This document shows positions 27,684-57,779 of a DNA stretch of 64,000 nt, piece after piece. This DNA is from Dictyostelium discoideum. Lineage: Eukaryota. A program made the translations under genes and the position numbers. The notes under the pieces are model-generated. The model was not told the origin of the DNA, did not search any database, and was given only the letters and a program-made list of their open reading frames with translations. Every line of letters starts with the position of its first letter. Within the stretch, counting starts at the first letter, position 1. The DNA lies in contig CM000153.2 in assembly GCA_000004695.1 (NCBI GenBank), positions 5,280,001 to 5,344,000 on the forward strand, written 5' to 3'.

Positions 27684-28631
27684 TTAAGGTAAGACCGTCC
27701 CAATTAATTTTGAAAATGCTGTATTTTTATCTCTTGATAATAACCAAGAGTTATAATAACGCTCAATACCATCAGTTAAACTTGGTTGTAATGGATAGTA
27801 ACCAATTAATGAAATTGCTTTAGAGGATGAAACATTTTGATTATAGGTTAAAAATTCAGTGAAAAAACTATTCTCTAATTTTGAAAGATATTCAATTGGT
27901 TTATTACTGAGATTACCACTAAAAGAGGCGATGCAAGTTACAACATCTTTAATTTTTTCATTATATGAATTTGCAATTAGAGTTTGACCTTTTAATTGTA
28001 AAGCATTTTTAATAACCAATTGATAAAAATTTACAAGATCAAATATATGAATAAAACCTTTAACACAATTTTCATCACCATAGATTTTAATAGAATCTTT
28101 TGATTTAGTTGCAGCTTCAAAATAATAACTTGCAACAGATTGATCCTTTCCATATAAAAAAGTTGGTTGAATAATAATTGCACCAAGAATTTCTTTATAG
28201 GTTTTCTCAATTTTAATTCTCCAATCAATAAATTTATGAGAAAAGTATGGAGTTGATTCATCATTTGTACCATTATTATTATTATTATTTTTAATATCAC
28301 CATAAACAACCACACCTGAAGTATAAATAAAGATTGTATTTGGTTTTTCATTATAAACTTTTAATAATGCCTCTTGAATTATAAATGGTGTTCTATGATC
28401 AGTTAAATCAGCAATTGCTTCAACAATGATATCTACTTTTAATGCTATTGGTAACCATTTTTCAATTTCTCTAACATCTGCTACAATTGGAATAATTTCA
28501 TTTCTTATTAATTGATCTGCACTTTCTTGTCTCCTTGTTAAACCATAAACTTTAAAACCATTTCTAACCAATACTAATGAAAGTTCACTTCCAATAAATC
28601 CACTTGATCCTAATATTAAAACATTTTTCAT
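27684..28631 (-). CDS. NAD(P)-binding Rossmann-fold reductase/epimerase (NmrA-like/atypical SDR)
   Basis: N-terminal MKNVLILGSSGFIGSELSLVLVRNGFKVYGLTRR (GxxGxxG). 315 aa, single exon. Confidence 0.6.
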   Translation of the reverse strand: MKNVLILGSSGFIGSELSLVLVRNGFKVYGLTRRQESADQLIRNEIIPIVADVREIEKWLPIALKVDIIVEAIADLTDHRTPFIIQEALLKVYNEKPNTIFIYTSGVVVYGDIKNNNNNNGTNDESTPYFSHKFIDWRIKIEKTYKEILGAIIIQPTFLYGKDQSVASYYFEAATKSKDSIKIYGDENCVKGFIHIFDLVNFYQLVIKNALQLKGQTLIANSYNEKIKDVVTCIASFSGNLSNKPIEYLSKLENSFFTEFLTYNQNVSSSKAISLIGYYPLQPSLTDGIERYYNSWLLSRDKNTAFSKLIGTVLP

Positions 28632-28753
28632 TTAAAATATAAAATATTAATAATATTAAAAATATATTATTATTTATTATTATTATTATTATAATTTATT
28701 ATTATTATTATTATTATTTATTATTATTAATATTATAATTATTATTTATTATT

Positions 28754-28785
<32 letters not shown>

Positions 28786-29609
28786 AATTATTATTATTAT
28801 TATTATTTATTATTATTAAAAAATAAAATTTAAAATTAAATTTTTTAATTAATTCAAAAATAATAACAATAATTTTAAATTAATCATTTAAAAAAATATT
28901 TGTAAAAAAAAAATACAAATTGAAAAAAAAGTAAGTTAACAATTTTTTTAAATAGATCCACACACAAAAAATGCGATTTATTAAAAAAAAATACACACAA
29001 TAAAAAAAAAAAAATTATAATAACAAGAAAACATGAGCGGTTTTTTTCATGTAAAACAGGTGGGTGTAGTTAGATATTTTCAAGATTATTATTTTTTATT
29101 TTTTAATTTTATTTTTAATTTATTTTTATTTATTTTTTATTTTTTTTTTTATAATTTTATTAAAATCTTTTTATTTTTTATAAAAAAATTCAATACATGT
29201 AGATAATTATTATGAAATCAAAAGCAACTACATATCGCCACCAAAATAATACCACCAACATCAACCGCAACAAACAAAACTAAAAATTAATAACAATACC
29301 ACCAACACACCAACACACCAACTTCAACAGCAACAAACAAAACCAACTAATAACTACACTACCAAACAACAGCAACAACAACCAGAAGAAAAATAGCAAA
29401 AGCAGGTGCAATTGGAGAATAGTTTCTAATGAATATTCAGTATTAATAAAAGAGGGTGAAATGAAATTATTATTATATTTAGAATTTAACCATCTAATTA
29501 TTAATAAATAATTAGAAAGTAGTTTAAACAATAAAAGTATATCAATATTTTTTTTTTATTTCTAATCTTTTTTTTTTTTTTTATTTCTAATCTTTTTTTT
29601 TATTTCTAA

Positions 29610-29647
<38 letters not shown>

Positions 29648-29663
29648 TACCTCCATTTATTAT

Positions 29664-31235
29664 TTATCTTTTTTTAATTTGAACAACTGTATTTTTGCAT
29701 TGTGTTGTTAAACCTGGAATACCATTATCATCAAATGGAATTGAAGGGTTTGGATTTATAAATTCATATCTATTCAAAACAGAAGCAATAATTGTAAAGA
29801 TTTCATTATATGCTAGTGATTTACCAATACAATCTCTAATTCCTGTACCAAAACTAATTAATGTTTGAGAGTTTTCATCTCCATTCCATCTTTCTGGTAT
29901 GAATTCATCTGGTTGGCTATAGAATGTATCAGATCTTTGAGTTGCATAAATATTTTGAAAAATCATTGTACCTTTTGCAATTGTGTACCCTTCAATCACA
30001 GTTTCTTGGGTGGTTTCATGTGGTGCACCAAATGGAGCTGCAGGATGTTTTCTATAGTTTTCTTTTAATGCTAATGATAGGTATGGTATTAATGAACGAT
30101 ATTTTGAATATTTTAATATTACCATACTCTCATTCATATAATCATCTGCTTGTTGATTTTGTTCAAATGAAACAACTATATCATTGTAAACTTTTGTTTG
30201 AATTGTTGGATTATTCATCATTTCAATTAAAAAGAATAATGCAGTACTAGATGTTGAGTCTGAACCTGCTGTAATAATGGTATTACAATTTGAAATGACC
30301 GCATCCCATGGAATATTACCTTTATCATGTTCAATCATTAATTTTGATAACATACATTCATCATCTTCTTTATATTTATGACTTTTAACAAGAGTTTCAA
30401 TTTGTACTACCAATGCTTGATATGATGTATATAGTTTTGATCTTTTTGAATGTGGTATTGGTAAGAAATCCGATAAAACTATCTCACCAGATGCAATTAA
30501 TAAATCTCTTATACCAACCATTAGATCACTAGTTTCTTCAAAATCTTGATATGGAAAATCAATACCAAATAAGAATCTTGAAATTATATTAATTGAAAAC
30601 ATTGAAAAATAATTATTCAATAAAAATGGTTTACCATCTTCTGAATGTTTATCTAATACCTTCATTAATTTAACAATTTCATTTTGAATATGTGATTCTT
30701 GTTTTTTAATTCTTGTTACTGTCAATTCAGATAGAAATATTCTTTTTAATGCTGATTGATTTTTACCATTTTCTTGAGTAATATCACTACATTTATTTAA
30801 TTTATATCTACTTTCAAAGGTATAATGTGGTGCAAATGCTTCTGAATTATCAATAAATGCTTTTTTAATAATTGGAAATCCAGTTAAAACAACTGCACTT
30901 TTATTACCCATATTCACACTATAAATCGGACCATATATTTTAAACCATTTTTGAAATGTTGTATGTATACCATTCTTATTATCCAATGATAATATATTAC
31001 CAAATATTGGTAGGCCAATTGGTCCTGGTATTTTTGAATTTATTTTTGATGGTGAATATTTATAATTCTTTTTTTTTATTAATTTTTTATTAATTATTTA
31101 AAAAAAAAAAAAATTAATATTAATATTAGTTTTTAGAAATTATTTTTACCCTAAAAAATTATTTATTATACATACTCTTTTAAATATTAAATATATTATA
31201 ATTGCTAAAATAACAGATAAAACTAATAAATTCAT
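29664..31235 (-). CDS. Cytochrome P450 monooxygenase. Exons join(complement(31176..31235),complement(29664..31067)).
   Basis: Heme-binding motif FGTGIRDCIGKSLA. Exon 1 MNLLVLSVILAIIIYLIFKR is a membrane anchor. A gtatgt intron precedes exon 2, which begins NYKYSPSKINSKIPGPIGLPIFGNILSL (PPGP hinge). Total ~487 aa. Confidence 0.8.
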
Positions 31236-31878
31236 TTTTAATTTTTGTTCATTTAATATTAAAAAAAACTATTTTAAAAAAGTTAAAAAAATAAAAAATT
31301 AATTCAATTTTCATTTTTTAATAATTTTTATTTCTAAAATAATTAATATAAACTAATATTTAGTAGAATATATAAAAATGAATAAAATATTAATTATTAG
31401 TTTTTTTTTTTCCAATTGGATTTTGTATCTATTAAAAAATAAAAATGCGTCACCAAAACACAATTAAAAAATATTAATTTTTTTATTAAATTGGTAAAAA
31501 AAACACTTCCCATGATAATCTTAATTGAAAATTTAAAAAAAATAAAAAAATTAAATAAATTAATTTTAATTAATAAATAAAAAATAAAAAAATAAAAAAT
31601 AAACATATAGATAAATAAATAAAAAAATGTCTCATTCCAATAGTGGTTTCTGCAAATAAAAAAAAAAAAAAAAAATAAATAATTCTTAAATTTAAAAAAA
31701 TACCAAATAGTGGGGGAATTGAGAATGAATAAAAAACATTTATTTAAGTGTGTTAATATTGGAAAAATTATTTATTACTACGGATTGAAAATCAATATTA
31801 ATTATATCAATTATTTATTTATTTTATTTTATTTATTTATTTTTGCGAATAAAACTGAATTTCTCCTTTTAAAAGTTA

Positions 31879-32367
31879 TTAGTTTAAGAAGTTTCCATAA
31901 ACTTTTTTAAATAATTCTTGTAATGCTGGAGTACTATTTGCAACTCTTATAATTTCACTTGGATCTAAATATTCTTTAATTGAAAATATTTTACCAGATT
32001 CATTTACTGATAAAACTAAGGCAATTTCAGCTGTGTACTCATTAACCATCCCATAACCCATATGTAGTGTTTTAATAACCAATAATATAATACGTCTTTC
32101 ATTATCAATAATTTTTTCAGTTTCTGTCATTGAGTACTTATCAAGACCACTATTAAGGAAATGCATACCATTTAATCTAAATTGAATTGGCTTCCAACCT
32201 GAAAATGGGAAAATACTTTCATCACCTGTAATCCACCATAGATCAGTCTCTGTATTATTAAATATCTTTGAATTTATTTCTTTATCTACATAATTTTTTT
32301 TATTAAAAAATTGAATAAATGAATTGGCCACTTCATTTAGGTTTAAATTATTATTATTTTTATCCAT
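31879..32367 (-). CDS. NTF2-like/SnoaL-like small protein (paralog 1 of 3)
   Basis: 162 aa. Shares with the two downstream paralogs the pattern FIQFFNKK.Y......FNNTETD.WW..GD...PF.G...IQ.RL.......G.DKYSMT......ERRI.L.V..T...GYGM..EY.....L.V...GKI..IKEY.DPS. Confidence 0.5.
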
Positions 32368-32946
32368 TTTTTATATATATATATTTTATTAATTTTTTTT
32401 TTTTTTTTTTATACAAACAAAAATAAAAATACAATACAAATTTAATTTTTTTTTTTTTATATCTAAAAATTCAAAAAAACAAAACAAAACAACATGAATA
32501 CATTATGAATAACAAATAATTTATAATAATTAATATGTGTAAAAAGACAAAAATTTATGAACTTTTTTATTATTACAAATTTATAATATTAATATATTTA
32601 TAGAAATATATTATTTACATACGTTAAATTAAATAATAGATATTACAAAAACAATTAGACTAAAAGTATTATATTTTATTAATTTTTTATGTATTTTTTT
32701 TTTATTTTAAATAATAAAAGTTGTGTGGTGAATTTTAATTTTTTAGTTATTGGTTTTTTTATTAATCACTTTATAATTTATGAATATGAATTTTTAAGTT
32801 TGTTTATAAATTAAATATGATATAGTTATTAAATACAACAACAAAATTAAATATGATATAGTTATTAAATACAACAGTAAAAATTTAGTAATTTAAAACA
32901 TTTCATTGAATCCTATTGTAGTAATAAAGTTATATATTTCATAAAG

Positions 32947-33029
32947 CCGGCTTTGGCGCAATGGTAGCGCGATTGACTGTAGTAACGAAAGTGATCAATC
33001 GGTTGCTAGTTCGAATCTGGCAAGCCGGA
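32947..33029 (+). tRNA. tRNA-Tyr (anticodon GUA) with an 11-12 nt intron 3' of the anticodon
   Basis: Acceptor stem CCGGCTT/AAGCCGG (C1:G72 as in eukaryotic tRNA-Tyr). D-arm GCGC-AATGGTA-GCGC. Anticodon stem ATTGA/TCAAT with loop CUGUAG, then an intron (taacgaaagtga). T-arm GCTAG-TTCGAAT-CTGGC. Discriminator A. A T6 run follows immediately. Confidence 0.85.
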
Positions 33030-33030
33030 C

Positions 33031-33036
33031 TTTTTT
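33031..33036 (+). terminator. Pol III oligo-T terminator of tRNA-Tyr
   Basis: TTTTTT immediately 3' of the tRNA. Confidence 0.6.
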
Positions 33037-33059
33037 AAAACAAAAATAATATAGTCACA

Positions 33060-33070
33060 GGTTCAATTCT
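33060..33070 (+). promoter_or_regulatory. Extra (ex-)B-box-like element downstream of the tRNA gene
   Basis: GGTTCAATTCT ~30 bp 3' of the tRNA matches the B-box consensus GGTTCGANTCC. Dictyostelium tRNA genes often carry such external B boxes. Confidence 0.4.
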
Positions 33071-33188
33071 CGATAAAAAATAACGATAATTCATATATGA
33101 ACCTATTAATTCCTTTAATAAACATTGATTAATATATAAAAAATTTAATTATTTTAAAAAAAATTTATTTGTTATTTAAATTGTTTTT

Positions 33189-33680
33189 TTAATCTCTTGA
33201 TGTTGGGGCAAAAGAATCTGGGAAAAAGTTTTTGAATATTCCTTGCAAAGATGGAGTACTTTGGGCCATTTTTAAATATGCACTTGGGTCAAAATATTCT
33301 TTAATTGCACAAATTTTACCATCTTCATTAACAGATATGATGAATGCATATTCATTAGAATATTCCTTTGTCATTCCGAATCCCATTGATACAGTTTTAC
33401 CAACAACTAACATAATTCTTCTTTCATGGTCAATAATTTGATCAATAAGAGTCATTGAATATTTGTCATAACCATTTTGAAGAGTTTGGAATCCATCTAA
33501 TCTTTTTTGAATAGAATCAGAACCAGCAAATGGGTAAACATTTTTATCACCAGATACCCACCATTGATCTGTTTCTGTGTTATTAAATAGTTTAGATTTA
33601 TTTTCATAATCTTTATTGTTAAAAAATTGAATAAATGCATTGGGAATTTCACATAGTGTTAGTTTTTTATTATTCTCCAT
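33189..33680 (-). CDS. NTF2-like/SnoaL-like small protein (paralog 2 of 3)
   Basis: 163 aa with the same conserved pattern as 31879..32367. Confidence 0.5.
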   Translation of the reverse strand: MENNKKLTLCEIPNAFIQFFNNKDYENKSKLFNNTETDQWWVSGDKNVYPFAGSDSIQKRLDGFQTLQNGYDKYSMTLIDQIIDHERRIMLVVGKTVSMGFGMTKEYSNEYAFIISVNEDGKICAIKEYFDPSAYLKMAQSTPSLQGIFKNFFPDSFAPTSRD

Positions 33681-34169: not shown

Positions 34170-34214
<45 letters not shown>

Positions 34215-34329
34215 GAGTTTATTTCCTAATACTTTTTTTTTTCCCACCGTCATAAATACCAATATAAAATAGTAGAATTTTATTATTTTTTTTAGACATT
34301 ATTTTAAAATATGATTTATTTTGTAAATA

Positions 34330-34800
34330 TTAAACTTTGTGATACAATTCTGTTAATTTTTTATTACTTAAAGAATACTTTAAAATTTCACTTGGATCAA
34401 AATATTCTTTAATTAAACAAATTTTTCCATCATTATTTACTGTTAAAAAGAAAGCATATTCATTTATGTAGATATTGTCTCCATAACCAACTGCACTTGT
34501 TCTTGCTTCCATAATTATTAAATTTTTTTCAATATTAAATGTTTTGTTTGATTCTGTAAATGAAAATTGATCATAACCATGAATTAATGGGATCATGTCG
34601 TTTAATCTTTTTTGAATTGGTTTCCAACCTGAAAATGGGTACATATTTTCATCTCCAGACATCCACCATTGGTCTGATTCTGGGTTATTAAAAATTTGGG
34701 ATATTAATTCTAAATTGTTAAATTCTCTATTATTAAAAAATTGAACAAATGAATCTGCAACTCTATTAAGTCTCAAAATGTTGTTTTCTTTACTTTCCAT
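34330..34800 (-). CDS. NTF2-like/SnoaL-like small protein (paralog 3 of 3)
   Basis: 156 aa with the same pattern (FVQFFNNREF...[22 protein letters not shown]...). Confidence 0.5.
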   Translation of the reverse strand: MESKENNILRLNRVADSFVQFFNNREFNNLELISQIFNNPESDQWWMSGDENMYPFSGWKPIQKRLNDMIPLIHGYDQFSFTESNKTFNIEKNLIIMEARTSAVGYGDNIYINEYAFFLTVNNDGKICLIKEYFDPSEILKYSLSNKKLTELYHKV

Positions 34801-35240: not shown

Positions 35241-36436
35241 TCATTTATTATAATAATTATTTAGTGAGTTTATAAGCATTTCATTTGTAATTATATTTTC
35301 AATTGAATCAGATTTAGAACAATGATTTGATTCCGAAATTGATTTATTTGATAATAATAAAAGTTGTGAGAAAGAATTTTGATATCTTGTATATTCAATT
35401 TGAATTGGTAATAGCTTAATACAAGATTGGAAATTTGAAGATTGAATTAATGAAAACCATTCAATATATTCAACTTTTTCACAATTGAATTGTGATCCTA
35501 ATATATTATTAATATTCTCAATTTGTAATGGTTTTTCAACTCCAATATTGATAATATTAAAGCAACGATGTTGTTCTTGTATGTAGCTTTCAATATTAAT
35601 TAGACAATTTGAAATTGTTGTTGATAATGATGAAATTGGGGATGTTAAAAATGAGAATTCTATATTTGGATATGACTTGATTTCAATACATGATTGTAGA
35701 TATAATTGAACATAATCATTTGGATTTGAGAAAATTGAAGGGGTTCTTAATATAATTGTATTCAAATTGAATTTATCAGAAGCTTGTTTTAATAAATGTT
35801 CAGAGACTGCTTTAATTTGTAATGAACCATTTGAAAGTTGAGAAATTTTATCAACTGGTATTAAGGTTTCAAAATCTACAGTACTACTACTATTATTTCT
35901 ACCTAAATTAACATATAATGAAGATATCATTAAAATTTCTTTTATACCATTAGTGATTGAAAATTTAATAATTTCCTTTACAGTTTCGATTTTATATGAT
36001 TCATTTATATAGGTTGAATTTGTTGATTCTACTGCATCACTATCTTGATTAATAATTATTGAATTTACATTATTTGAAAGTATATTCAATTCATCAATTG
36101 GTAAACCAAAGTTATTCTTTGATGAATCACCAAAATAAACATGAATCTTTGAAATTTCAAATTCACTTAATTGTTCATAAAGTTTATATTGTTTAAAACT
36201 ATTTAAAATTTCATCATTTGAATTAATAGAATTAATTCTATCTTTTAATATATAATAAATATTTGAACAATTTGAATCTTTAACTAAATTAAATAATAAA
36301 TGAGTTCTTAAAATTCCAATTGAGCCAATTAATAAAATATTTTTGTTATTATTATCTAATTTTTGATGATGATTTTCATTGTTATTATTATTATTAATAT
36401 CTAATTTAATTTGATTCTCCCAAAATAGAATATCAC
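35241..36436 (-). pseudogene. Orphaned PKS C-terminal thioester-reductase-like (R, NAD_binding_4-type) domain. No start codon; separated from its PKS by a transposon insertion.
   Basis: On the minus strand the frame is open from the transposon end (36436) to the stop at 35241. It reads SDILFWENQIKLD...NILLIGSIGILRTHLLFNLVKDSNCSNIYYILKDR (GxxGxxG-like Rossmann motif typical of terminal reductase domains). The total is ~400 aa. The first Met (36089) lies after the nucleotide-binding motif. Confidence 0.6.
36432..36436. repeat. Target-site duplication ATCAC (left copy)
   Basis: Identical pentamer ATCAC at 39798..39802 immediately outside the other TIR. Confidence 0.75.
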
Positions 36437-36582
36437 TGTTGTAGGGAATTTTCCATAAAATTTCACTACAGTAGCGTAGTGAATTTTATTATTTAATTTC
36501 ACTACAGTAGCGTAGTGAAAAAAAAAAATCACTGACCTTAAATTTTTTTTTTTTTCAAAAAACAAATAAAGTTTATTAAATT
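36437..36582. repeat. Terminal inverted repeat (left) of the transposon; contains two copies of a 23-bp palindromic subrepeat TTTCACTACAGTAGCGTAGTGAA
   Basis: See mobile element; reverse complement of 39653..39797. Confidence 0.8.
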
Positions 36583-36639
36583 GAAATTTTATTTTTTGTT
36601 TTAATTATTATTTTATTTATTTTTATTATAATTATTGTT

Positions 36640-36672
<33 letters not shown>

Positions 36673-36813
36673 CAATTTTTTTTTTTTAAATTTTTTTCAA
36701 TTTTTATTTGTTTATTAAATTGTAATTTTATTTTTTGTTTTAATTATTATTTTATTTATTATTATTGTTAATTTTTTTTTTTTTTCAATTTTTTTTTTTT
36801 TAATTTATTTTTA

Positions 36814-39287
36814 TTAATTTATTTTTATTAACTCCCTGAGTTGTTCAATTGCTTGATTTACCATATCACTGTAAACACTGCACACAATTGAATTTTTTCT
36901 AGCTTTGTTACCTCTGGTGCATTTGATGTTTTTGCATTTTCCTTTGTATACAAAAAAGTCCAAATATAATTCGTTTTCTATTACAGTTTTTACACAATGT
37001 TGGTGAAATTGTTTTGATTTTAAGTGGAATGTTGGTAACATCATATTTGGATTTTTAACGATTAAAGCATCACCACTATTGACATATAGTACTTTGGGGG
37101 CTTTTTGGAGGAATTTAGTCAAATTTTCCTCTGAATCTAACTAATCTTCATTGCCATATTCAATGGATAAATTTTTTAAGAGTTGTATCGAATATATTAA
37201 TTAAGCGATCATTCTTTTTTTTTGAAATTTTTTTTTAATCAGATTTAGCAATTTTTTTTTTTTATCAAGTTTTTTCAATTTTTAATAAGTAATATTTTTT
37301 TTTATTTTTAATTATTTGTGTTAACAAATGTAATTTTTTTTTATTGATTTCAACACTTTGTTTTTATTTAATAATTTCCCCATACCCCCTTCTATTAATG
37401 CAACCAAATCAAGTTCTAATTTTTGTGTCCTTGTTGACTTTGTTTTTGCAACTTTTTTTGAAGGTATCACATTAACGATTTTTCCTATTGATGGTGATTT
37501 GGAAGGTGATTTAAATGGTGATTTAAATGGTGAATTGGAAGGTGATTTAAATGGTGAATTGGAAGGTGAAATGGATGGTGATTTGGAAGGTAATTTAAAT
37601 GGTGATTTGGAAGGTGATTTAAATGGTGATTTAAATGGTGAATTGGAAGGTGAAATGGATGTTGATTTGAGAGGTGATTTGGATGTTGATTTGAGAGGTG
37701 ATTTGGATGGTTTAGAATGTGATTTTAAAGGAGGTTTATTAACAATTGGTATCTTATGAGGACGGCCTCTGAGACGTTTAACAGTTGTTACTATACCACT
37801 ACCAGATTGTGGTATAGTATATGATGGTATTATTTGCACTTGAGGTATTGGTGGTACTATTTCTTTTAAATTCATATCCTTTCTCAAACAATTCATTAAA
37901 TTTGGCGCTGTTGGATTATTATTTAAAAATGGGAGTATTTCTTCTTGTTCCATTTCATTATTGAGTTTGTGTTGAAATGGATTATCGTTAATGATAGGTG
38001 GAATATTTGATGGATTGTTAAGAGCATCTTCCAAAACCCTAAATGGATCATTTTGTGTTACCAATTGATGCAAGTTGAAATTGGATAAATCCTTACCAAG
38101 ATTTTTAATAAACTGAACCAGAAATTCAATAACTTTCCCATCATTATTTAAATAAAGACCAGAAGTAAAAGAATCAATATCTTTTTGTATGTTTGGCGAT
38201 GTTCTAAAAATATCAACTGTTGATTGTTTATAAAGAACCAACTTGTTACCTCCTACAAAACCAGAGTATAAACCTTTTTTTTGAAGGCTATTGATTCCAT
38301 CTTCCAAAAATTCAAGTTTATAAAGTTGTTTAGTGTCTTCCTGTATTACCTTATGAATTTTACACAAAATCAATATTTTCTATTAGAATTAAATATAAAA
38401 TTTGTTAATTATTACTGTTTCATATATTATTAATCTTTATGTTTTAATTACTTACATTATTTTTTTTAATTTCTAGAAAGAGTACAGTATCACCAACTTT
38501 CAATCCCTTTGGTGGTTTTGAATTCCATTGATTTTGGTAACTTGTGAGATTTTCAAGAATAATAGCTGTTATTTCTTCTTTTGAAACATCTGAAACACCA
38601 ATTGATTGAGAGTCTTGTTCTGATTGCACATTAATAAACAAAGGTACAATACCAACAGCTTGAGATGGTGTCATTTTAATTGTTCTTGTTTTTGTATTAT
38701 TGTAATCATACAAAGCTTGTTTTAATAGTTCAGAAAGAGACCTAGAAGTACCATCAAGAAAACTAAAATTTATTTATAAATGATTAATTAATAAACATAT
38801 CGATAATTTATATTGTTCAAAATATCATACTCTTGTTGTTTTAATTTTGAGATCCTCTCCTTGATAGTTCGATTCAATCTTTCTACCATACCTTGAGTTG
38901 TTGGTGTACGAGGAGCTCCATGTGCTGACTTGGAGCCTGGAAAAAGTTTTAGGAATTCTTTTTGGACTTTGTTTTTAAATTCACGTCCATTATCGCAGTG
39001 CCATACTTTCACAGAGTTTTAATATAAAAGTTACAAAACATCATATAAAAAATGATTGATACCAAACCTTTTATTCTATTTCGTTGGCAAATGTCACACG
39101 TATCTACTGCATCAGATACAAAAGAATACAATCCCATATTATAATATTTAGTCTTGTAGTTCCCATAGGTTGCATCTCTTCCTATATGACCTTTATGCAT
39201 TTCTTCCCAGAGTGATACCATTCTATAATCATTAATTACTTCTAAACACACTTCTTTTGATATATTTCTATCTCCGCCACAATTCAT
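36814..39287 (-). CDS. Transposon-encoded integrase/transposase region: H2C2 zinc finger + rve DDE core + C-terminal region with AT-hook/SP[LF]K repeats, split over several ORFs (introns or decay).
   Basis: ORF 39009..39287 carries HKGHIGRDATYGNYKTKYYNMGLYSFVSDAVDTCDICQRNR (integrase H2C2). ORF 38788..39012 carries DNGREF...GAPRTPTTQGMVERLNRTIKE (rve core motif). ORF 37321..38373 has RLRGRPHKIP (AT-hook-like) and SP[LF]KS repeats. Further ORFs 38444..38713 and 36814..37122 lie on the same strand. Confidence 0.6.
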
Positions 39288-39652
39288 GACTTTTTTTTCA
39301 ATTCTAAATAATTTTTCTTTTCTGTTTCTGTTTTTTATTGGTCAGAATTTAAAAAATGATTGTGTTATGGTAAGGAAAAATATTTACTCATCATGTAAAA
39401 ATTTATAATTTTTATGTTTAGTATTTTCAAAATTATTATCTTCAATAAATTTTAAATAATTTATCTTGTTTCATTTTGGGAAAATGAAAATAAAAAAAAA
39501 AAAAAAAAAAAAAAAAGTTTTGTTGGGGAAAAAAAAAAAAAATTTTGGCGCAAAAAAAAAAAAAAAAAATAAAATAAAAAAAAAAAAAAATAAAATAAAA
39601 AAAAAAAAATAAAAAAACTTAAATAGAACTAATAATCAAATAAAAGATAATA

Positions 39653-39797
39653 ATTTAATAAACTTTATTTGTTTTTTGAAAAAAAAAAAAATTTAGGGTC
39701 AGTGATTTTTTTTTTTCACTACGCTACTGTAGTGAAATTAAATAATAAAATTCACTACGCTACTGTAGTGAAATTTTATTGAAAATTCCCTACAACA
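39653..39797. repeat. Terminal inverted repeat (right) of the transposon
   Basis: Reverse complement of 36437..36582 with two mismatches. Confidence 0.8.
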
Positions 39798-42700: not shown

Positions 42701-42803
42701 CACTATCAGATATACTTGAAGATTTAATCATTATATCAGAATTGAAATTACAATTAACCAATAAGTTTTTCAATGATTCTTTATTATTTTCATTATTTAA
42801 TAG

Positions 42804-42868
<65 letters not shown>

Positions 42869-45800: not shown

Positions 45801-47230
45801 ATTAAATTGAGATAATACTAAACAACAATTTGAACCAGTTGCACCAAAATTATTAACAACCATTGAAGTATTTTTAAATTTATTAAATGGAATTGGTTCA
45901 GTTACAACTTTTAAATTCCATTCTTTAAATTTAATTGCTGGATTTGGTGTTTTAAAATGAATATTTGGTGCAAAACATTTGTTTTTATACATTAAACAAC
46001 ATTTGATTAATGAAGCAATACCAGAAGCAGCTTCACAATGACCAATATTTGATTTAAATGATCCAATTAATAATGGAGTATCAGTTGAACGAGTATCTTT
46101 AAAAACTTTTGAAATACCTTCAACTTCAATTGGATCACCAGTTGGTGTACCAGTGCCATGTGCTTCAACATAATCTATATCAGATGGTTTAACAGTTCCA
46201 TTGGTTGATTGAATTGCATTTTTTAAATTTTCAGATTGTGAAATTGATGATGGTGAATAGAAATTTGATTTATCAGAATAACCAATACCATCAACATTTG
46301 CACTTGCACCATTTATTGTACAATAAATTCTATTACCATCTTTAATTGCATCTTTTAAATTCTTTAAAACCACAACACCAATACATTCACTTCTTACATA
46401 ACCATCAGCTGATGCATCAAATGATTTACATCTACCATTTGATTTACTTAATATATTCAATGAAGAATATGCTTTAAAAAAGTAAGAGTCTAATAAAATT
46501 AAAAAATTTAATTAATAAATAAATATAAAGATAAAATTAAAAAAACTATTAAAAAAAAATACATACCAAGTAATATATTAACACCACCAACAATTGACAT
46601 TTTTGATTTTTTATTTTTGATTGAATCATATCCTAATGCGATTGCATTTAAAGATGATGAACATGCAGTATCTAGAGTTATTGAATTACCATGAAGATCA
46701 TAACAATAGGAGATTCTATTTGAAATCGCATGATTTAAACTTGAGAATACATTTGATTTTACTTCATTTTTATTGATATTATGATAGTCACTTTCGGTAC
46801 AACCAATGAAAACCGAAGTATCTGTACCTTTGATTGAAATTGGATCAATTAATGAATCTTCTAATGCTTCCCATGTACATTTTAATAATAATCTTTGAAT
46901 TGGGTCAATGGTTGGTGCTTCATTTGGATTAATACCAAAAAAGAGTGGATCAAATGATTTAACTTCATCCAATGGTAATAGTCCTGAATAATTATTTGCA
47001 ATTTCATGATTTTTGAAAAAGTTATCATTGAATCTTTCTGATGTTTTCACTACACCATCGAAACCATTTATTAAATTATTCCATAATGTTTGAGGTGTAT
47101 TGTTTCTTTCATTTTCAATACTTCCACTTGGTAATCTAAAGCCAACACCAACAATTGCAACTAAATTTTCTTCAACATGTTTATCATCAACTTGTAAAAT
47201 TTCTGCTTTATTTATTTTATTTTGTTTCAT
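39738..47230 (-). CDS. Iterative type I polyketide synthase (KS-AT-DH-cMT-ER-KR-ACP). Its C-terminus reads into the transposon TIR and stops there. Exons join(complement(46567..47230),complement(39738..46479)).
   Basis: KS: DTACSSSL (exon 1), [19 protein letters not shown]: [18 protein letters not shown]: [17 protein letters not shown]. cMT-like: [15 protein letters not shown]: [19 protein letters not shown]: [19 protein letters not shown]: [11 protein letters not shown]. The phase-1 intron (donor ctt g|gtatgt, acceptor ttttattag) splits GGVNILL | [24 protein letters not shown]. The final 8 codons ([17 protein letters not shown]) are encoded by the TIR. Confidence 0.85.
39798..39802. repeat. 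Target-site duplication ATCAC (right copy)
   Basis: Matches 36432..36436. Confidence 0.75.
42803..42868 (-). repeat. (CAA)n microsatellite encoding a 22-residue polyGln inside PKS1 (cMT/linker region)
   Basis: ttgttgttg... run on the plus strand. The protein reads [37 protein letters not shown] versus [19 protein letters not shown] in the paralog. Confidence 0.85.
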
Positions 47231-48049: not shown

Positions 48050-48886
48050 TTAAAAATATTTTTTTTTTATTCTTAATAATGGAGTATTATTATTAATATT
48101 AATAATTCCATCAGTACCATTTTCATAAGAAATTTTAAAAATTCCATTTGTATAGTAATAGAAACCTTCGTCGAATTTTAAAAAAAATACAAGACCAGTT
48201 AATATATTTGAAAATTCTACGAAATAATTTGCAGAATATTTCAATTGACCAACTGAAATTGGATTTAAATTAAAAGAGAAAACATTTACAAAATCATTTA
48301 AAGAATTTGTTTTTTCTTGATATATTAAAACACCATTTTCAGTTTCACTTTCAATGATTCTATATATTTTTGTATTATTTGTTAATTTTGGAGATTGACC
48401 AATTTCATTGCCAATTTCAATTGGAAAATAACAAGATAGAAAAGTGAAACAAGCATCAACCAAGTATTTTTTATTCTTAAATTCCATTACATTGCAATAA
48501 TGAAGTCCGATATTTGGGTATACCAAATTCTCTCCACCGTCAATTGCTTTAATTAATTGAACTTTTATTCCAAATTCTTGTAATAACATACCAAATAATA
48601 TATTATGGTTTAAACAAATATTGCCAACCTCTTTCTCTATCATTGTTTCAACAATATAATCCATATCGATTGTTGGTCCATCTTTTAAAACGTCAATATT
48701 ATTATATGGAAAATGTTCTGCAAATTTCACCATTAACAATTCAAAATCATCCAAACAATTTAATTGAAAATCAATTTCTAAATTTAATTTTGGTAATATA
48801 ATTTCTTTAAAATTATATTTTTTATTTGCTAATTTTAATTCTTCATAACTGAAATGTAAAAAATAGTCTTTGTCATTAATTTCCAT
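48050..48886 (-). CDS. Arylamine N-acetyltransferase (NAT)-family protein
   Basis: 278 aa. The NAT catalytic-cysteine motif region reads EKEVGNICLNHNILFGMLLQEFG (compare RGGWCLQVNHLLYWAL in human NAT). Downstream His/Asp region is HYCNVMEFKNKKYLVDACFT (compare HLLLQV...YIVDAGFG). The gene lies between the two divergent PKS genes. Confidence 0.6.
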   Translation of the reverse strand: MEINDKDYFLHFSYEELKLANKKYNFKEIILPKLNLEIDFQLNCLDDFELLMVKFAEHFPYNNIDVLKDGPTIDMDYIVETMIEKEVGNICLNHNILFGMLLQEFGIKVQLIKAIDGGENLVYPNIGLHYCNVMEFKNKKYLVDACFTFLSCYFPIEIGNEIGQSPKLTNNTKIYRIIESETENGVLIYQEKTNSLNDFVNVFSFNLNPISVGQLKYSANYFVEFSNILTGLVFFLKFDEGFYYYTNGIFKISYENGTDGIININNNTPLLRIKKKYF

Positions 48887-49079: not shown

Positions 49080-49121
<42 letters not shown>

Positions 49122-50550: not shown

Positions 50551-53500
50551 ATGGATAATAGTTATTTAAATAATCCCCAATTTGATATTAATAATGGTAA
50601 TAAAGAAGTTACAGATGATGATAATAATAAAAATAATCAAGATAATTTAGTAGCAATTGTTGGTGTTGGTTTTAGATTACCAAGTGGTGAAAATGAAAGA
50701 AATAATACACCTCAAGCATTATGGAATAATTTAATAAATGGTTTCGATGGTGTAGTGAAAACATCGGAAAGATTCAATGATAACTTTTTCAAAAATCATG
50801 AAATAGCAAATAACTATTCAGGACTATTACCATTGGATGAAGTTAAATCATTTGATCCACTCTTTTTTGGTATTACTCCTAATGAAGCACAAACTATAGA
50901 TCCTCATCAAAGATTATTATTAAAATGTACATGGGAAGCATTAGAAGATTCATTAATTGATCCAATATCAATCAAAGGTACTGATACTTCTGTTTTCATT
51001 GGCTCTTCAACAAATGATTATCTTACATTAAATAGAAATGAAGTAAAATCAAATGTGTTTGGTAGTATGGCTCATTCAATTGCAAATAGAGTATCCTATT
51101 GTTATGATCTTCATGGTAATTCAATAACTCTAGATACTGCATGTTCATCATCTTTAAATGCAATCGCATTAGGATATGATTCAATCAAAAATAAAAAATC
51201 AAAAATGTCAATTGTTGGTGGTGTTAATATATTACTTGGTATGTATTATTTTTAAAATTTTTTATTATATTTTATTTTTTACAAAATTATTAATTAAAAT
51301 TATATTATTATTTTTTTTTAAAAGACCCATATCCATATAAGGCATTCTCAATTTTGAATATGTTAAGTAAATCAAATGGTAGATGTAAATCATTTGATGC
51401 ATCAGCTGATGGATTTGTTAGAGGTGAATGTATTGGTGTTGTTATTTTAAAGAATTTAAAAGATGCAATTAAAGATGGTAATAGAATTTATTGTACAATA
51501 AATGGTGCAAGTGCAAATGTTGATGGTATTGGTTATTCTGATAAATCAAATTTCTATTCACCATCATCAATTTCACAATCTGAAAATTTAAAAAATGCAA
51601 TTCAATCAACCAATGGAACTGTTAAACCATCTGATATAGATTATGTTGAAGCACATGGCACTGGTACACCAAATGGTGATCCTGTAGAAACCGAAGGTAT
51701 ATCAAAAGTTTTTAAAGATACTCGTTCAACTGATACTCCATTATTAATTGGATCATTTAAATCAAATATTGGTCATTGTGAAGCTGCTTCTGGTATTGCT
51801 TCATTAATCAAATGTTGTTTAATGTATAAAAATAAATGTTTTGCACCAAATATTCATTTTAAAACACCAAATCCAGCAATTAAATTTAAAGAATGGAATT
51901 TAAAAGTTGTAACTGAACCAATTCCATTTAATGAAAATAAAAATACTTCAATGATTATTAATAACTTTGGTGTTACTGGTTCAAATTGTTGTTTAGTATT
52001 ATCTCAATTTAATAATACAAATAAACAAAAACAACAAATGAAAACAAAAATAAATAATTATTTAATTCCATTTTCAGCAAATTCAGTTGAATCATTAAAA
52101 AAATATCAATCATTAATTATAAATAGTAAAGAAAATGAATTAAAATATAGTTTTGAAGAATTTGTTAAAAACCAAGTATTTATTAAACCAACATCACTTT
52201 ATCAAAGATCTGTAATTGTTGCAAAAGATTGGAATGATTTTAATAATGTTGAAAATCAAGTTAAATATCAAACTTCAAGTAGTACTTCTTCAAATATTAC
52301 AATTACAAATAAAAATAATAATCCAATAACTGTATTTGTATTTTGTGGTCAAGGATCACAATATAATACAATGGCATTAGAATTATATAAAAATGAAAAA
52401 GTATTTAGAAATTCGATGGATATGCTAGATAATAAAATGAAAAATTATTTTGGATATTCAATTTTAGAGAAATTAAGAGCAATTCAAGATAGTGATAAAC
52501 GTTCAGTTCATGAACAAACAATGGCACAACCATCAACTGTAATTATTCAAGTATCATTATATGAACTTTATAAACATTGGGGTATAAAAGCATCATTTAT
52601 GTTGGGTCATAGTCTTGGTGAAGTAACAACTGCTTATTGTTCAGGTATGATTGATATTGACCAATTATGTTATTTAATTTATCATAGATCAACATTACAA
52701 ATAAGAACAAATGGGTTAGGTAAAATGTTATCAATTAACATTAGTTCAGATGAATATAAAACTAACTATATGTCACGTTATCCAACCATTGAAATTGCAT
52801 GTTATAATTCACCATCATCAATTGTAATCGCAGGTAATGAACAAATTTTAAATGAAATTTCAAAAGAATTAAAAGAAAAAGAAATTTTCTCAGCAATGTT
52901 AGGAAGTTTATCAAGTTTTCATACAAGTAGTCAAAATATAATTAAAGATGATATTTTAAATTTAAATATCCAATCAAGTCAACCTGTTATTCCAACATTT
53001 TCAACAGTTACATCAAATTTATTTAATGAATCAACTATTTTTGATTCTGAATATTTCTTTGATAATATTTCAAAACCAGTTTCATTCACTCAAACAATTT
53101 CAAATTTATATAAACATATTGAAGATAATCAAATCGGTTCAAATATTGTATTCATTGAAATTGCACCACATCCAACATTATCATTTTATTTAAAACAAAT
53201 GATTCCAAAACAATCACAATACTTTAGAAATGGTGAATCAATATCAGTTTATTCAACACTTCATAAGAAAAAGAATGATGTTGAAGAATTTCAAAAATCA
53301 ATTTCACAATTATTTTGTGATGATGCTTATGATATTAATTTTAAATGTCAATTTAATAATATAAATAGCAATATTGAGGCTATTAGTAATTTTAATTTAC
53401 CATTATATCAATGGGATGATCAACATTATTGGTTAAATAAATCAATTGAACATAAAAATAATTTAATTGGACCACCAATTTCAATTCTCGGTAATTCAAT

Positions 53501-56500
53501 GCAAGATTCAAATCCATTTATTAAATCATATCAAACAATAATTGATACTGGAAAAGATGCATTCAAATATTTAAAAGGTCATAATGTATCTGATAAATGT
53601 TATTTCCCAGGTGCAGGTTATATTGATAATCTTTTAAAATTATATCCAAATCAAGATTTAACAATTAATTCAATTGAATTTAAAACACCTTTAATATTAT
53701 CAGATGATAATGGTCAATTTTTACAAACAAATGTTTATCAAACTGGTAAAAGTGATTATAGAGCTCAATTTCATTTTAAAGATAATAGAACAAATGTATG
53801 GGTTCAAACATGTACTGCTAATTTTCAATTATATAATAATGGTAAAGTTGATAAATTAAATTTAGAAGAAATTAAATCAACAAAATGTAATTTATCATCA
53901 ATACCATGGGATAAATTTTATCCACATATAAAAAATAGAACTGGTTTAAACTATAAAGACAAATTTCAAAATACAATTGAATGCTATCTTGGTGATAATT
54001 GTTCATTAACTGAAATATCATTAGAATTACCAGAAAACTTTCATGATCAAGAATCATTTTTTAATACACCAATTTTAGATATTTGCTTCCATGGTTCAAT
54101 TGTTTTAATTAAGGATAATTGTAAACTTGTTTTGGATAAAATTGATGGTTTTAAATTATATACATCAAACATTCCAAAAAATAGATTTGATCATTTAAGT
54201 ATTTTTGTATATACAACTATGAAATCAACAAAATCAAATTCATACAATTCAACATACACAGTAATGTTAGAAGATGGTACTGTTATACTTGAAGTTGAAA
54301 ATTTAATATGTACATCATTAACACCAGTTAAAGATCCATTATTAATTGAAATTCCAACTGATATGTATTATACTCCATATCTTCAATCAAAAGATTCACA
54401 AATTCAATCACCATTAGAATTTAAATCAATTTATCAAAACAATCAAGATAATGATAGCTTATTAATTCCAAATGTTGTTTTAGAAACAATTAAACCATTA
54501 ATTAATGAGCAAATGGAATTTAGAATTTTAGAATTTGGTGGTAATAATTTATCAAATTCAACTTTATTATTGAATTCAATCAATTCATTACTTGAAGAAA
54601 ATCCACATTATGAAATTGATATTGAATATACATGGAGTGATAATAATTCATCAATTTTAAAAGATGCTAAATTAGAATTATCAAAAGTAGATAAAGGTTA
54701 TTTAAGTATTCTTTATCGTTCATTAGGTTTAGATGTTGATAATTCATTATTAGAAAAACAAAAATTAAATCCATCATATTATGATTTAATTATTGTTTCA
54801 AATATTTCAAATTTAACAAAAGATATTAAATATTCATTAAATCAAATTTATCAAATTTTAACACCAAATGGTAATTTAATAATAAATGAACAACAACCAA
54901 ACAATGAAAATAATGAAAATAATGAAGATTCATTGAAAAACTTATTGGTTAATTGTAATTTCAATTCTGATATAATGATGAAATCTTCAAGTGTATCTGA
55001 TAGTGATATTAAATCAATTATTATTCAAGCTCAAAAACCATCATTAAAATTACAACCAAAAACAATAAACACTTTTGATCAAGTCATTTTATATTGTAAT
55101 CAAGATGAACAATTCCAACAACAACAACAATTAATTAATAAATTTGAAAGTCATTATAATAATAATTGTAAAATAATAAAAGTATCAACAATTGAAGAAT
55201 TTTATAAATTATCAACAACAATTACAAATAATTCAATCATTTATTTTATAAAATCAATTGAACAATTAACATTGGAAAACTTTAAATCAATAACATTTGA
55301 ATATGTTCAAATTAATCAAAAATTATATGAATTTAAATCAAAATGTACTCACGTTTTAATTACATATGATTCTCAATCAAGTAATTATTTATCATCATCA
55401 ATTTTAGGTGCAGCAAGATACTTTGATGAAATTCCAACTTTACAATTATTTACATTTGATTTTGATAAAGATTCATTAATTAATTTAGACATTTCGGTTA
55501 TAGATCATTTGATAGATCCAAAACAAAATACATTGATTGAATTCTTTATTAAAAAAAATGGTAAAGTTTATTTTGAAAGATTTAAAAAAGGTTTAAAGAA
55601 AAATTCTTTTAAATCAGAATCATATCATCAAATTACAAATGAACAAGAAATTTTAATTTCAAAATTAGATGAAAATTTAGATTATCAATTAAAATCAAAA
55701 GATTCAATTTTAAAACCATATGATATTGAAGTAGAAATTAAAGCAACTGGTTTAAATTATAAAGATTATTTAGTATATAGTGGTTTAATAAAATTAAAAG
55801 GTGATAGTGTTGATTTTGGTCTTGATTTTTCTGGTAGAGTTAGTCGTGTTGGAATTAAATCATCAAAAGAATTTAAAGTTGGTGATGAAGTTTATGGTAT
55901 TGGACAATCAACATCATCATCTCATATTATTATTGATTCAATGCATGCATGTCATAAACCATCAAAGATTACACATGTTCAAGCAGCTTCAATTCCAGCA
56001 GTTTATGCAACTTCAATTCATTCTTTATATAATATTGGTAATTTAAGAGAAGGAGAATCAATTTTAATTCATTCAGGATCTGGTGGTGTTGGATTATCAG
56101 CATTGGAAATATTAAAATCAAATAATCATTCATCTCCAATATTTGTTACAGTTGGATCAGAAGAAAAGAAACAATATCTAATTAATACCTATGGTAATTT
56201 AATCACTGGAATTTATTCAACAAGAGATACAAATTATCAAAAACAAATTAAAAACAAATTAATTGAATTAGGTTATGAAACTCATGGTGTTGATTTAATT
56301 ATTAATACTTTATCAAGTGAATTTATGGATAGCAATTTCAAATGTTTAAATCCAGAAGGTAGAATTGTAGATTTAACAATTACTCATTTAAATCCAAATG
56401 AATTTATTGATAATAATAAATTTAAATATAATTTTGGTTATCATAATATTGAATTATATTATTGTGAAAAGCCAACAATTAAGAAACTATTACAGTCAAT

Positions 56501-57779
56501 TTCAAAATCAATTGAAAATAATACATTAAATTATTTAATTCCAATTACAGAATTTTCAAATTCAAATATTAAAAAAGCAATTGAATACATTAATGAACGT
56601 AAACATGTTGGAAAAATTGTAATTTCTCATGATACAGATATTACTAATAAATTAATTGAAAATCAACCTAAAATTGATTACTCTTTATTGAAATCAAATT
56701 ATAAAATTAAAAATCTTGGTAAAAATGTATTGGTTACAGGTCAAACTGGTCTAATTTTAGATATTATAAATTGGATTATGAAATATAATTCAACTGTTGA
56801 AAATATAATTATTCTTTCAAAATCATCAATGAAATGGGAAATGGAATTTTTAATTAACAACAATAAGACAAAAATTAAATTCTATTATAAAAGATGTGAT
56901 ATTGGTGGTGATTCAGATTCAATTAATAAAACATTTGATAAATTGTTTACAGAAAATCCAACAATTACAAACATTGATTCAATATTCCATTTTGCAGTTG
57001 TACAAATTACAAGAAAAGTAAAAGATATTGATATGAAATCATTAAATATTTCACATGATGCAAAAACAATTGGTGCAATTAATTTACATAATCAATCAAT
57101 TAAAAGAGATTGGAAATTAAGTAATTTCATATTAGCATCTTCAATTCTTTCAAAAGTTGGTTCATTAGATCAATGTGGATATGTTTCAGCATGTTGTGTA
57201 CTTGACTCATTTTCAAAATATCGTTTATCTATTGGATTACCTGCATTATCAATTAATATTGGTGCTATGGGTGGAAGTGGAATGGTTGCAAGAAGTGAAC
57301 TTGTTGAAACTGTACTTAATGGTCAAGGTTATAATTTAACCTCAACAAACCAACTATTAGGTACAATTGATTTATTAATTCAAAATCCTGGTCAAGAATC
57401 AAATAATTTAATGGTTGGTAATTTTAATTTCCCAGTTTTTAATAATTTCAAACAAAAGATTCATCAAAAATTTGATTTTATTTTTAATGCTCTTGATTCA
57501 AACTCTGAAAATGGTGATGGTAGTAATATCAAAAATTCAACAAATATTAAAGATAAATTTTTAAACAAAGTATCAGAATTTCTTTCAATTGATTCATCTA
57601 AAATTAATAATGATATTAAATTAATGAATTATGGTGCTGATTCATTAATTACTGTTCAATTAAAGAATTGGGTTGATAAAGAATGGTCTCCAAATTTAAT
57701 TACAATTCATCAAATTCAATCAAATTCAATTGGTATGGTTTGTCAAATTATAAATGATAATTTTGAAAAAAAAAAATAA
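50551..57779 (+). CDS. Iterative type I polyketide synthase (KS-AT-DH-cMT-ER-KR-ACP), a paralog of PKS1 in inverted orientation. Exons join(50551..51238,51325..57779).
   Basis: Same domain motifs as PKS1 ([83 protein letters not shown]). The phase-1 intron (ctt g|gtatgt ... aaaag) splits GGVNILL | [24 protein letters not shown]. The stop comes right after the ACP (...[11 protein letters not shown]). Confidence 0.9.

Follow-up and report, generated by a model that had tools for sequence, protein, structure and literature searches.

The stretch of Dictyostelium discoideum AX4 DNA analysed here (64,000 nucleotides, called the window; G+C ~22%) carries within 30 kb a candidate polyketide gene cluster, composed of two highly reducing iterative polyketide synthases (PKSs), a homologue of arylamine N-acetyltransferases (NAT4), three small UPF0523 paralogs, the P450 CYP513B1 and, doubtfully, a short-chain dehydrogenase/reductase (SDR). 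We put at roughly 60% the probability that this locus holds a polyketide gene cluster restricted to the D. discoideum species complex and co-regulated during development, its expression being turned on by stalk cells during culmination (20-24 h). The members of the candidate cluster probably belong to one uncharacterised small-molecule pathway. Its unusual parts are the NAT partner, a reductase-like domain lacking the catalytic tyrosine (R* domain) at the end of one PKS and the three NTF2-like genes.

Genes were identified from a listing of open reading frames (ORFs), Pfam scans and exact protein look-ups, and these confirmed all eight genes that a first-pass annotation of the window had placed in the 30 kb. 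The interval contains, from left to right:

27684-28631, minus strand: DDB_G0287085, SDR (exact look-up; Pfam Epimerase, 8.4e-14)
29664-31235, minus strand: cyp513B1 (DDB_G0287087), P450 (Pfam p450, 8.7e-68)
31879-32367, minus strand: UPF0523 A (DDB_G0287089), 162 aa, NTF2/SnoaL-like (exact look-up)
33189-33680, minus strand: UPF0523 B, which is staE (DDB_G0287091), 163 aa, NTF2/SnoaL-like (exact look-up; structure model and Foldseek)
34330-34800, minus strand: UPF0523 C (DDB_G0287093), 156 aa, NTF2/SnoaL-like (exact look-up)
35241-36436, minus strand: severed 3' end of PKS1 (pks25), a linker and the C-terminal thioester-reductase-like (R*) domain (Pfam NAD_binding_4)
36437-39797, no strand: Tdd-4/Tdd-5-type (Ginger2/Tdd) DNA transposon of 3,361 bp within the PKS1 coding sequence (inverted arms and target-site duplication)
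39798-47230, minus strand: 5' part of PKS1 (inferred pks25, DDB_G0287095; Pfam domains)
48050-48886, minus strand: nat4 (DDB_G0287121), arylamine N-acetyltransferase homologue (Pfam Acetyltransf_2, 2.3e-18)
50551-57779, plus strand: PKS2 (inferred pks24, DDB_G0287119), 2,380 aa (Pfam domains)

Note that the pairs pks25/DDB_G0287095 and pks24/DDB_G0287119 are those of the expression table used below, and that they were assigned to PKS1 and PKS2 from the order of the identifiers only. PKS2 alone lies on the plus strand, with nat4, PKS1, UPF0523 C, B and A, cyp513B1 and the SDR gene following one another on the minus strand, and apart from the transposon no unrelated gene is found among the eight. 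The NAT-like gene had been described as sitting between divergent PKS genes; it does lie between the two, but it shares the orientation of PKS1, upstream of which it is found, and diverges from PKS2 only. The P450 reading is borne out by the Pfam match, and the spliced CYP513B1 product (487 aa; exon 1 31235-31176, encoding the membrane anchor, intron 31175-31068, exon 2 31067-29664) is exactly Q54KV0 / XP_637420, with the FGTGIRDCIG haem loop, the ENYR (ExxR) and the AGSDST I-helix motifs in its translation. As for the predicted NmrA/epimerase-like reductase, its epimerase half holds while NmrA matches at 0.024 only; DDB_G0287085 is a 315-aa extended SDR (NAD-dependent epimerase/dehydratase family), with no assignment beyond that family.

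Expression data were taken from supplementary file 5 of Kin et al. 2018 (PMC6198379), which gives the Parikh 2010 time course together with transcripts per million (TPM) in cup, spore, stalk and vegetative cells. The stalk-specific block was identified by its position in the file and by the highest stalk TPM values, and the conservative stalk-specific set amounts to 757 genes. All eight genes stand consecutively on this list, where they run from DDB_G0287085 to DDB_G0287121, the preceding entry being DDB_G0287065 and the following one DDB_G0287265 with no other identifier in between, and the flanking FNIP, phosphatase and phosphoglycerate-mutase-family genes are off it. DDB_G0287065 (position in the window not mapped) has a very late stalk-specific profile, with 732 TPM in stalk. 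Seven of the eight genes show almost no expression in vegetative cells or at 0-12 h and increase jointly at 16-24 h, as follows:

pks25: 71 at 20 h and 56 at 24 h (0.02 at 0 h); stalk 13.4 TPM
pks24: 48 at 20 h and 36 at 24 h; stalk 3.2 TPM
nat4: 22 at 20 h and 44 at 24 h, silent until 16 h; stalk 90 TPM
cyp513B1: 134 at 20 h and 145 at 24 h; stalk 751 TPM, vegetative 0.01
UPF0523 A: 134 at 20 h and 185 at 24 h; stalk 879 TPM, vegetative 0
UPF0523 B: 77 at 20 h and 214 at 24 h; stalk 5651 TPM
UPF0523 C: 26 at 20 h and 39 at 24 h; stalk 1640 TPM, vegetative 0

Co-expression, on which the initial proposal depended, is thus seen for all eight genes as membership of the stalk list and for seven of them as a shared 20-24 h profile, but the SDR gene departs from it, being on from 8 h, with a peak at 16 h and transcripts in prespore as well as prestalk cells. 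UPF0523 B is staE, a published stalk marker whose promoter-lacZ fusion stains the tip core and the stalk; c-di-GMP induces staE, in strong synergy with DIF-1. The gene has been tabulated as 'grp 4, unknown, no domain', and the staE papers make no mention of a PKS context. The co-localisation of the eight genes is more than chance, because NAT4 is one of the four NAT genes numbered in D. discoideum, because a profile search (representatives merged above 50% identity) found no further D. discoideum relative of UPF0523 bar a 68-aa fragment from the same locus of another strain, and because the whole set is stalk-specific.

The small paralogs A, B and C are 45-54% identical to one another (54% between A and B), and Pfam/NCBIfam scans assign them to no family, A and C having no match at E ≤ 1 and B spurious matches only. 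Structure modelling nevertheless confirms them as predicted NTF2-like proteins forming a narrow, divergent branch. The AlphaFold2 model of UPF0523 B, computed from a four-sequence alignment (mean predicted local distance difference test score, pLDDT, 79.6; predicted TM-score, pTM, 0.72), displays N-terminal helices packed on a long curved antiparallel sheet, i.e. an alpha+beta cone. A Foldseek search of the PDB with this model gave 280 matches at E ≤ 1e-3, and the 50 listed are all NTF2-like entries. Among these, the top matches (E ~1e-6, probability 1.00) are the aldolase AtoB, the meroterpenoid isomerases Trt14, PrhC and AusH, TerC, the xanthone isomerases NsrQ and Dcr3 and the pinacolase BvnE, and the next ones are NTF2-like, ketosteroid-isomerase-like and 'putative SnoaL-like polyketide cyclase' entries. 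Among 1.8 billion representatives, the UPF0523 family profile retrieves only 20 proteins at E ≤ 1e-3, of which the four strongest are dictyostelid and the remaining ones are Pfam SnoaL_2 members, fungal proteins among them (E 2e-8 to 1e-3). Note that word-indexed searches with staE and NAT4 recovered only orthologues of at least 82% identity, and that a HMMER profile search was needed to reach the D. purpureum, Heterostelium album and fungal SnoaL_2 proteins. Compared with D. citrinum, the ratio of non-synonymous to synonymous substitution rates (dN/dS) is 0.10-0.20 over all three paralogs (A 0.10, C 0.20). The NTF2-like fold put forward in the first-pass annotation is therefore upheld: there is no Pfam match, yet the model, the Foldseek matches and the SnoaL_2 profile link agree.

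Both PKSs display in Pfam a KS-AT-DH-(MT-like)-ER-KR-ACP architecture (ketoacyl-synt, Ketoacyl-synt_C, Acyl_transf_1, PS-DH/PKS_DH_N (weak), ADH_N/ADH_zinc_N_2, KR and ACP_SdgA_C), and the active-site motifs, GADSL included, are readable in their translations, as expected for iterative type I highly reducing PKSs. The C-methyltransferase domains also attributed to them fare less well than the KS, AT, DH, ER, KR and ACP domains, the methyltransferase matches falling below the Pfam cut-offs: Methyltransf_12 scores 20 bits against a cut-off of 30 (E ~1e-3), and motif I, read directly from the sequence, is LEFGGNNLS where the canonical form is ExGxGxG. A 21-residue polyglutamine run lies in the MT-like region of PKS1 and is absent from PKS2. 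Each gene has a single short intron after the first KS exon (PKS1, exon 1 47230-46567 and exon 2 from 46489; PKS2, exon 1 50551-51238 and exon 2 51325-57779). The two proteins form a mosaic, with 99-100% amino acid identity over residues ~600-1000 (from AT to the start of DH) and 63-67% in the C-terminal part of DH and other blocks, which suggests, from the identity pattern, gene conversion between the inverted paralogs after an inverted duplication. PKS2 terminates directly after its ACP, without a release domain, and homology with PKS1 stops at 57776; its orthologues (2,378-2,439 aa), at the same position in D. citrinum and D. dimigraforme, end likewise. D. discoideum has ~40 PKS genes, only three of them characterised, and a lineage-specific expansion of dictyostelid PKS genes has been reported; the accessible portion of a 2025 global PKS study makes no mention of the genes described here.

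PKS1 extends further than its ORF in the window. This ORF runs 22 codons into a transposon and stops at 39738, giving 2,471 aa with an odd tail, and downstream of the break a 282-aa ORF with a weak NAD_binding_4 match leads to the true end of the gene at 35241; both the element at 36437-39797 and the reductase-like domain that it severs had been overlooked in the first-pass annotation. The element is bounded by inverted arms of 269 nt (36437-36705 and 39529-39797, 84% complementary) whose termini read TGTTGTAGGG (TGTTG ends), and it is flanked by a perfect 5-bp target-site duplication (TSD), ATCAC, at 36432-36436 and 39798-39802. It holds an integrase-core fragment (Pfam rve_3, 2e-4), the integrase reading frame being in pieces. 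The hallmarks of TDD-4/TDD-5 (Ginger2/Tdd) elements are a 5-bp TSD, terminal inverted repeats (TIRs) of 260-297 bp, TGTNR ends and an integrase-like gene (PMC2836005). The element in the window resembles them in its 5-bp TSD, TIRs within ~260-300 bp, TGTNR termini and Gypsy-integrase-like coding remnant, a match made by published features, and differs in its length, 3,361 bp compared with ~3.8 kb for the reference; it is probably a deleted or degenerate copy. A 12-nt tandem repeat at 37455-37742, within the 350-aa ORF of the transposon, encodes a Ser/Pro/Lys-rich run (…SPSKSPFKSPS…). Two other accounts of the 36.4-39.8 kb insert were rejected, a retroelement in view of its inverted (not direct) termini, its 5-bp TSD and the lack of a reverse-transcriptase match in it, and a misassembly in view of the perfect TSD and a precise empty site in four other assemblies.

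In silico excision of the element together with one ATCAC copy restores a single frame of 2,848 aa. The near-identical assembly GCA_054883475.1 has an intact 2,848-aa gene call, identical to the restored pks25 over its last 2,185 residues (the part compared). At the DNA level, the identity is 100% along the 5.4 kb that lead to the insertion point, beyond which the match picks up again with a 5-bp overlap. The empty site, with the same 5-bp junction overlap, is precise in the four other assemblies (L001, L002, which is D. citrinum, L010 and L014); another D. discoideum strain and D. citrinum align straight through it, and the PKS1 orthologue of D. dimigraforme is one continuous gene of 2,830 aa that keeps the reductase-like domain. 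Because other assemblies have the empty site or the intact gene, the insertion is, as judged from these comparisons, a polymorphism of the reference lineage and not a feature of the species.

The transposon falls between the pks25 ACP and the C-terminal reductase-like domain. In the restored protein, the 397-aa C-terminus matches Pfam NAD_binding_4 (2e-17, 63.7 bits) directly after the ACP, and the L004 orthologue carries PF07993. Aligned with the myxalamid reductase MxaA (4u7w), the TGxxGxxG motif reads IGSIGILR, the third glycine of the nucleotide motif being lost, and the catalytic Tyr is replaced by Ser while the Lys is kept. D. discoideum, D. citrinum and D. dimigraforme all share these non-canonical residues without change, in a domain that is 79-96% identical overall, and its dN/dS is 0.20; this pattern speaks for a domain that is non-canonical but conserved, and not for decay. 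Redox-incompetent R* domains of fungal PKS-NRPS hybrids (NRPS, non-ribosomal peptide synthetase) lack the catalytic tyrosine. By analogy with them, and because the Tyr and the third glycine are absent, the release of the pks25 chain is probably non-reductive, by condensation or cyclisation.

NAT4 matches Acetyltransf_2 (PF00797) at 2.3e-18, with 67.3 bits for a cut-off of 22.8, and is exactly Q54KU4. It is only distantly related to the solved bacterial NATs (E ~3e-3), and its Cys-His-Asp triad aligns with that of Mesorhizobium loti NAT1 (2bsz), GNIC, GLHY and LVDA facing RGGYC, His and Asp. Its dN/dS is 0.08. In RifF-type amide synthases, which are NAT homologues of ansamycin polyketide pathways encoded beside PKS genes, the finished chain is taken onto the catalytic cysteine and released by amide formation (2024 microbial NAT survey); here, nat4 is adjacent to PKS2, the synthase that has no release domain. 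Over the 19 kb compared with GCA_054883475.1, the window shows 21 mismatches, and 17 of them lie in the 3' end of nat4 (48050-48170). The AX4 protein has 278 aa and ends in …RIKKKYF, when GCA_054883475.1 and independent read assemblies give 291 aa ending in …RIVSKYFKIKNIDLKSIKKK and the length is 285-298 aa in all other assemblies and orthologues; the reference C-terminus probably reflects a sequence error or a strain-specific mutation.

These lesions raise the possibility that the cluster is decaying and that its product is no longer made, to which the transposon in pks25, the aberrant C-terminus of AX4 NAT4 compared with all other assemblies, the sub-threshold methyltransferase matches and the lack of the canonical Tyr in the reductase-like domain would all lend themselves. 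We consider this very improbable. The insertion is absent from the near-identical assembly, from three other D. discoideum-complex assemblies, from D. citrinum and from D. dimigraforme, all open reading frames are intact elsewhere, dN/dS values of 0.08-0.20 (nat4, the R* domain and the three paralogs) indicate purifying selection, and the invariance of the altered residues across species points to a retained, modified function.

The order PKS2, NAT, PKS1 with its R* domain, UPF0523, P450 is kept in D. citrinum and D. dimigraforme, with 75-87% protein identity. D. citrinum has three UPF0523 copies followed by the P450, then directly by a FNIP-repeat gene, the SDR gene being missing (L002 14334-14772, compared with window 27431-29663); in D. 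dimigraforme, a single gene call after the PKS1 orthologue joins a UPF0523 C-like N-terminus to the P450. As far as the sequences compared indicate, the arrangement is conserved only within the D. discoideum/citrinum/dimigraforme clade. A second divergent PKS (2,410 aa) and NAT (285 aa, 85% identical to NAT4) are found at another locus of D. cf. discoideum strain ACTFIZ (GCA_054859235.1, L005 1852-10858), from which we conclude that the PKS-NAT pair moves as a unit. No R-domain, UPF0523 or P450 match was found near this second pair (UPF0523 and P450 checked within 10 kb downstream). It could then be that only pks24, nat4 and pks25 form a functional unit, with the NTF2-like triplet, the P450 and the SDR as a separate stalk module that happens to be adjacent, and the k-means expression classes are indeed mixed, nat4 and staE falling in class 7. 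However, in each of the four assemblies examined UPF0523 C lies on the PKS1 strand and starts ~440-480 bp past the stop codon of PKS1, and UPF0523 A, UPF0523 C and cyp513B1 share class 3 with both PKSs, so that such a division of the locus appears quite unlikely.

Several observations weigh against a single polyketide pathway. None of the genes is linked to a metabolite, and the locus keeps the status of a candidate cluster. No PKS is found near the single UPF0523 homologues of D. purpureum and Heterostelium album, nor near the closest CYP513 relatives in D. firmibasis and D. purpureum, and the conservation described above covers only close relatives, in which general synteny is kept anyway; since homologues further afield are not PKS-linked, in agreement with the lineage-specific expansion reported for dictyostelid PKS genes, it adds modest support only. 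The membership of the SDR gene is doubtful, because its time course departs from that of the others and because the D. citrinum locus lacks it. No AHBA-synthase-like or aminotransferase gene (AHBA, 3-amino-5-hydroxybenzoic acid) is present among the window ORFs scanned against Pfam, and no gene for an amine acceptor (AHBA pathway, transaminase, NRPS module) in the window. The Tyr-to-Ser call in the reductase-like domain comes from one pairwise alignment, at E ~1e-4. Lastly, in mature stalks the UPF0523 transcripts exceed those of the PKSs by two to three orders of magnitude, an excess that tailoring enzymes do not usually show and that would suit abundant binding proteins as well.

The main rival explanation builds on this last point and takes the locus as a co-expressed but functionally unconnected neighbourhood, in which the UPF0523 proteins would be ligand-binding or structural components of the stalk, NAT4 and CYP513B1 would serve xenobiotic or housekeeping detoxification, and the two PKSs would produce lipids or polyketides with no relation to each other. 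Stalk levels of 879-5651 TPM for UPF0523 compared with 3-13 TPM for the PKSs are in line with it, as are the many non-enzymatic binders among NTF2-like folds (the Foldseek list includes engineered binders and proteins of unknown function), the UPF0523 homologues of D. purpureum and H. album that are not PKS-linked, and the classical role of NAT enzymes in xenobiotic metabolism. Nonetheless, the boundaries of the expression domain coincide with a set of biosynthesis-type genes, the best structural matches of UPF0523 B are specifically secondary-metabolite enzymes, the PKS-NAT pair has been duplicated as a unit, and PKS2 needs an external release activity. We therefore regard an unconnected neighbourhood as unlikely and retain the polyketide gene cluster as the preferred reading.

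Within this polyketide cluster, the core would be composed of pks24 on the plus strand, divergent from nat4-pks25 on the minus strand, followed by UPF0523 C, B and A and cyp513B1, with the SDR as a doubtful eighth member. Each highly reducing iterative PKS would build a reduced chain from malonyl units. The pks25 chain would exit through its own C-terminal reductase-like domain, probably non-reductively, and NAT4 would take the pks24 chain from the ACP onto its active-site cysteine and transfer it to an acceptor bearing an amine or a hydroxyl group, perhaps the product of pks25, a step that would follow RifF-type amide synthases in its chemistry and LovD in its 'two PKS plus transferase' logic. 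The NTF2-like proteins may then isomerise, cyclise or dehydrate the product and CYP513B1 may oxidise it. In the AX4 reference the pathway would be damaged, the Tdd-type transposon cutting pks25 between the ACP and the release domain. What we infer in this scheme is the unloading of pks24 by NAT4, the non-reductive release of pks25, the action of the NTF2-like proteins and CYP513B1 on the same product, and the AX4 defect. In its most specific form, with NAT4 as a eukaryotic counterpart of RifF unloading pks24, pks25 releasing itself non-reductively through its Tyr-less domain, and both acting with three NTF2-fold enzymes and CYP513B1 towards a stalk-specific polyketide that is induced by c-di-GMP and DIF-1 and that AX4 cannot complete, the proposal is tentative, and we would not expect all of its parts to hold together.

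Around the cluster, FNIP-repeat genes lie directly outside both ends (25570-27430 and 58230-59834, both on the plus strand; Pfam FNIP 2e-31 to 2e-67), neither being on the stalk-specific list, and beyond them are ordinary housekeeping genes. Unrelated neighbours include a Rad52/22-family gene (10434-11240, plus strand), gpaC, encoding the G-protein alpha-3 subunit (18021-19535, plus strand), and a radical-SAM/UPF0004/TRAM methylthiotransferase-like gene (22047-23965, plus strand). DDB_G0287067 (9082-9474, minus strand, 130 aa) bears the UniProt name 'fluoroacetyl-CoA-specific thioesterase-like domain-containing'; a distance of 18 kb, occupied by housekeeping genes, separates it from the cluster edge, and the stalk list does not include it.

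To our knowledge, no highly reducing PKS cluster of fungal style has been described in an amoebozoan. The three genes for DIF-1 biosynthesis (stlB, the chlorinating-enzyme gene and dmtA) are not known to form a cluster and lie scattered over the genome. The view that such co-localisation is not widely documented stands insofar as a literature search by gene identifiers and names found no paper discussing this cluster; one sentence of the 2024 microbial NAT survey had, however, already remarked that (DICDI)NAT4 'could reside in a BGC' (biosynthetic gene cluster). For finding a new amoebal polyketide, the locus indicates which genes to consider, when (culmination, 20-24 h), in which cells (stalk) and with which inducers (c-di-GMP and DIF-1), and staE, a widely used stalk marker, gains a fold and a plausible biochemical context. 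With its truncated pks25 and aberrant nat4 3' end, the AX4 reference implies that metabolomics or knock-outs in the wrong laboratory strain could give false negatives. If NAT4 were the chain-release enzyme, the off-loading of polyketides by NATs would be found in eukaryotes as well as in actinomycetes.

Compared with known systems, NAT4 resembles the RifF-type amide synthases in being a Cys-His-Asp NAT homologue encoded directly beside a type I PKS without thioesterase; those systems are bacterial, modular, AHBA-primed and macrolactam-forming, whereas the PKSs here are eukaryotic and iterative, without AHBA genes. The pks25 C-terminus shares with MxaA-type terminal thioester-reductase domains the NAD_binding_4 fold directly after the ACP, and differs from them by IGSxGxLR in place of TGxxGxxG and Ser in place of Tyr. 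The missing catalytic Tyr likens it to the R* domains of fungal PKS-NRPS; unlike these, pks25 has no NRPS module upstream, and the tetramate-type Dieckmann reaction is therefore not directly applicable to it. The UPF0523 proteins share with the fungal NTF2-like enzymes (Trt14, AusH, PrhC, AtoB, NsrQ/Dcr3, BvnE, TerC) and with SnoaL cyclases the same alpha+beta cone fold, with Foldseek TM-scores, normalised to the target, of 0.58-0.73 for the top seven named enzymes, and the genomic setting beside PKS genes. They differ by an identity of only 10-20%, by the lack of a direct SnoaL or SnoaL_2 match and by ~25 additional residues with a low-confidence C-terminal helical tail. The lovastatin cluster (LovB/LovF/LovD/LovA), an example of the fungal clusters with two highly reducing PKSs, a discrete acyltransferase and a P450, is distinguished from the present locus by its transferase, LovD having an alpha/beta-hydrolase (esterase-like) fold where NAT4 has the NAT fold, as well as by the reductase-like terminal domain of one PKS and the three NTF2-like genes present here, and no transcription factor or transporter gene is apparent in the window. 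What the two have in common is the overall layout, in which two iterative KS-AT-DH-(MT-like)-ER-KR-ACP synthases are clustered and co-expressed with a P450 and a separate enzyme for acyl transfer.

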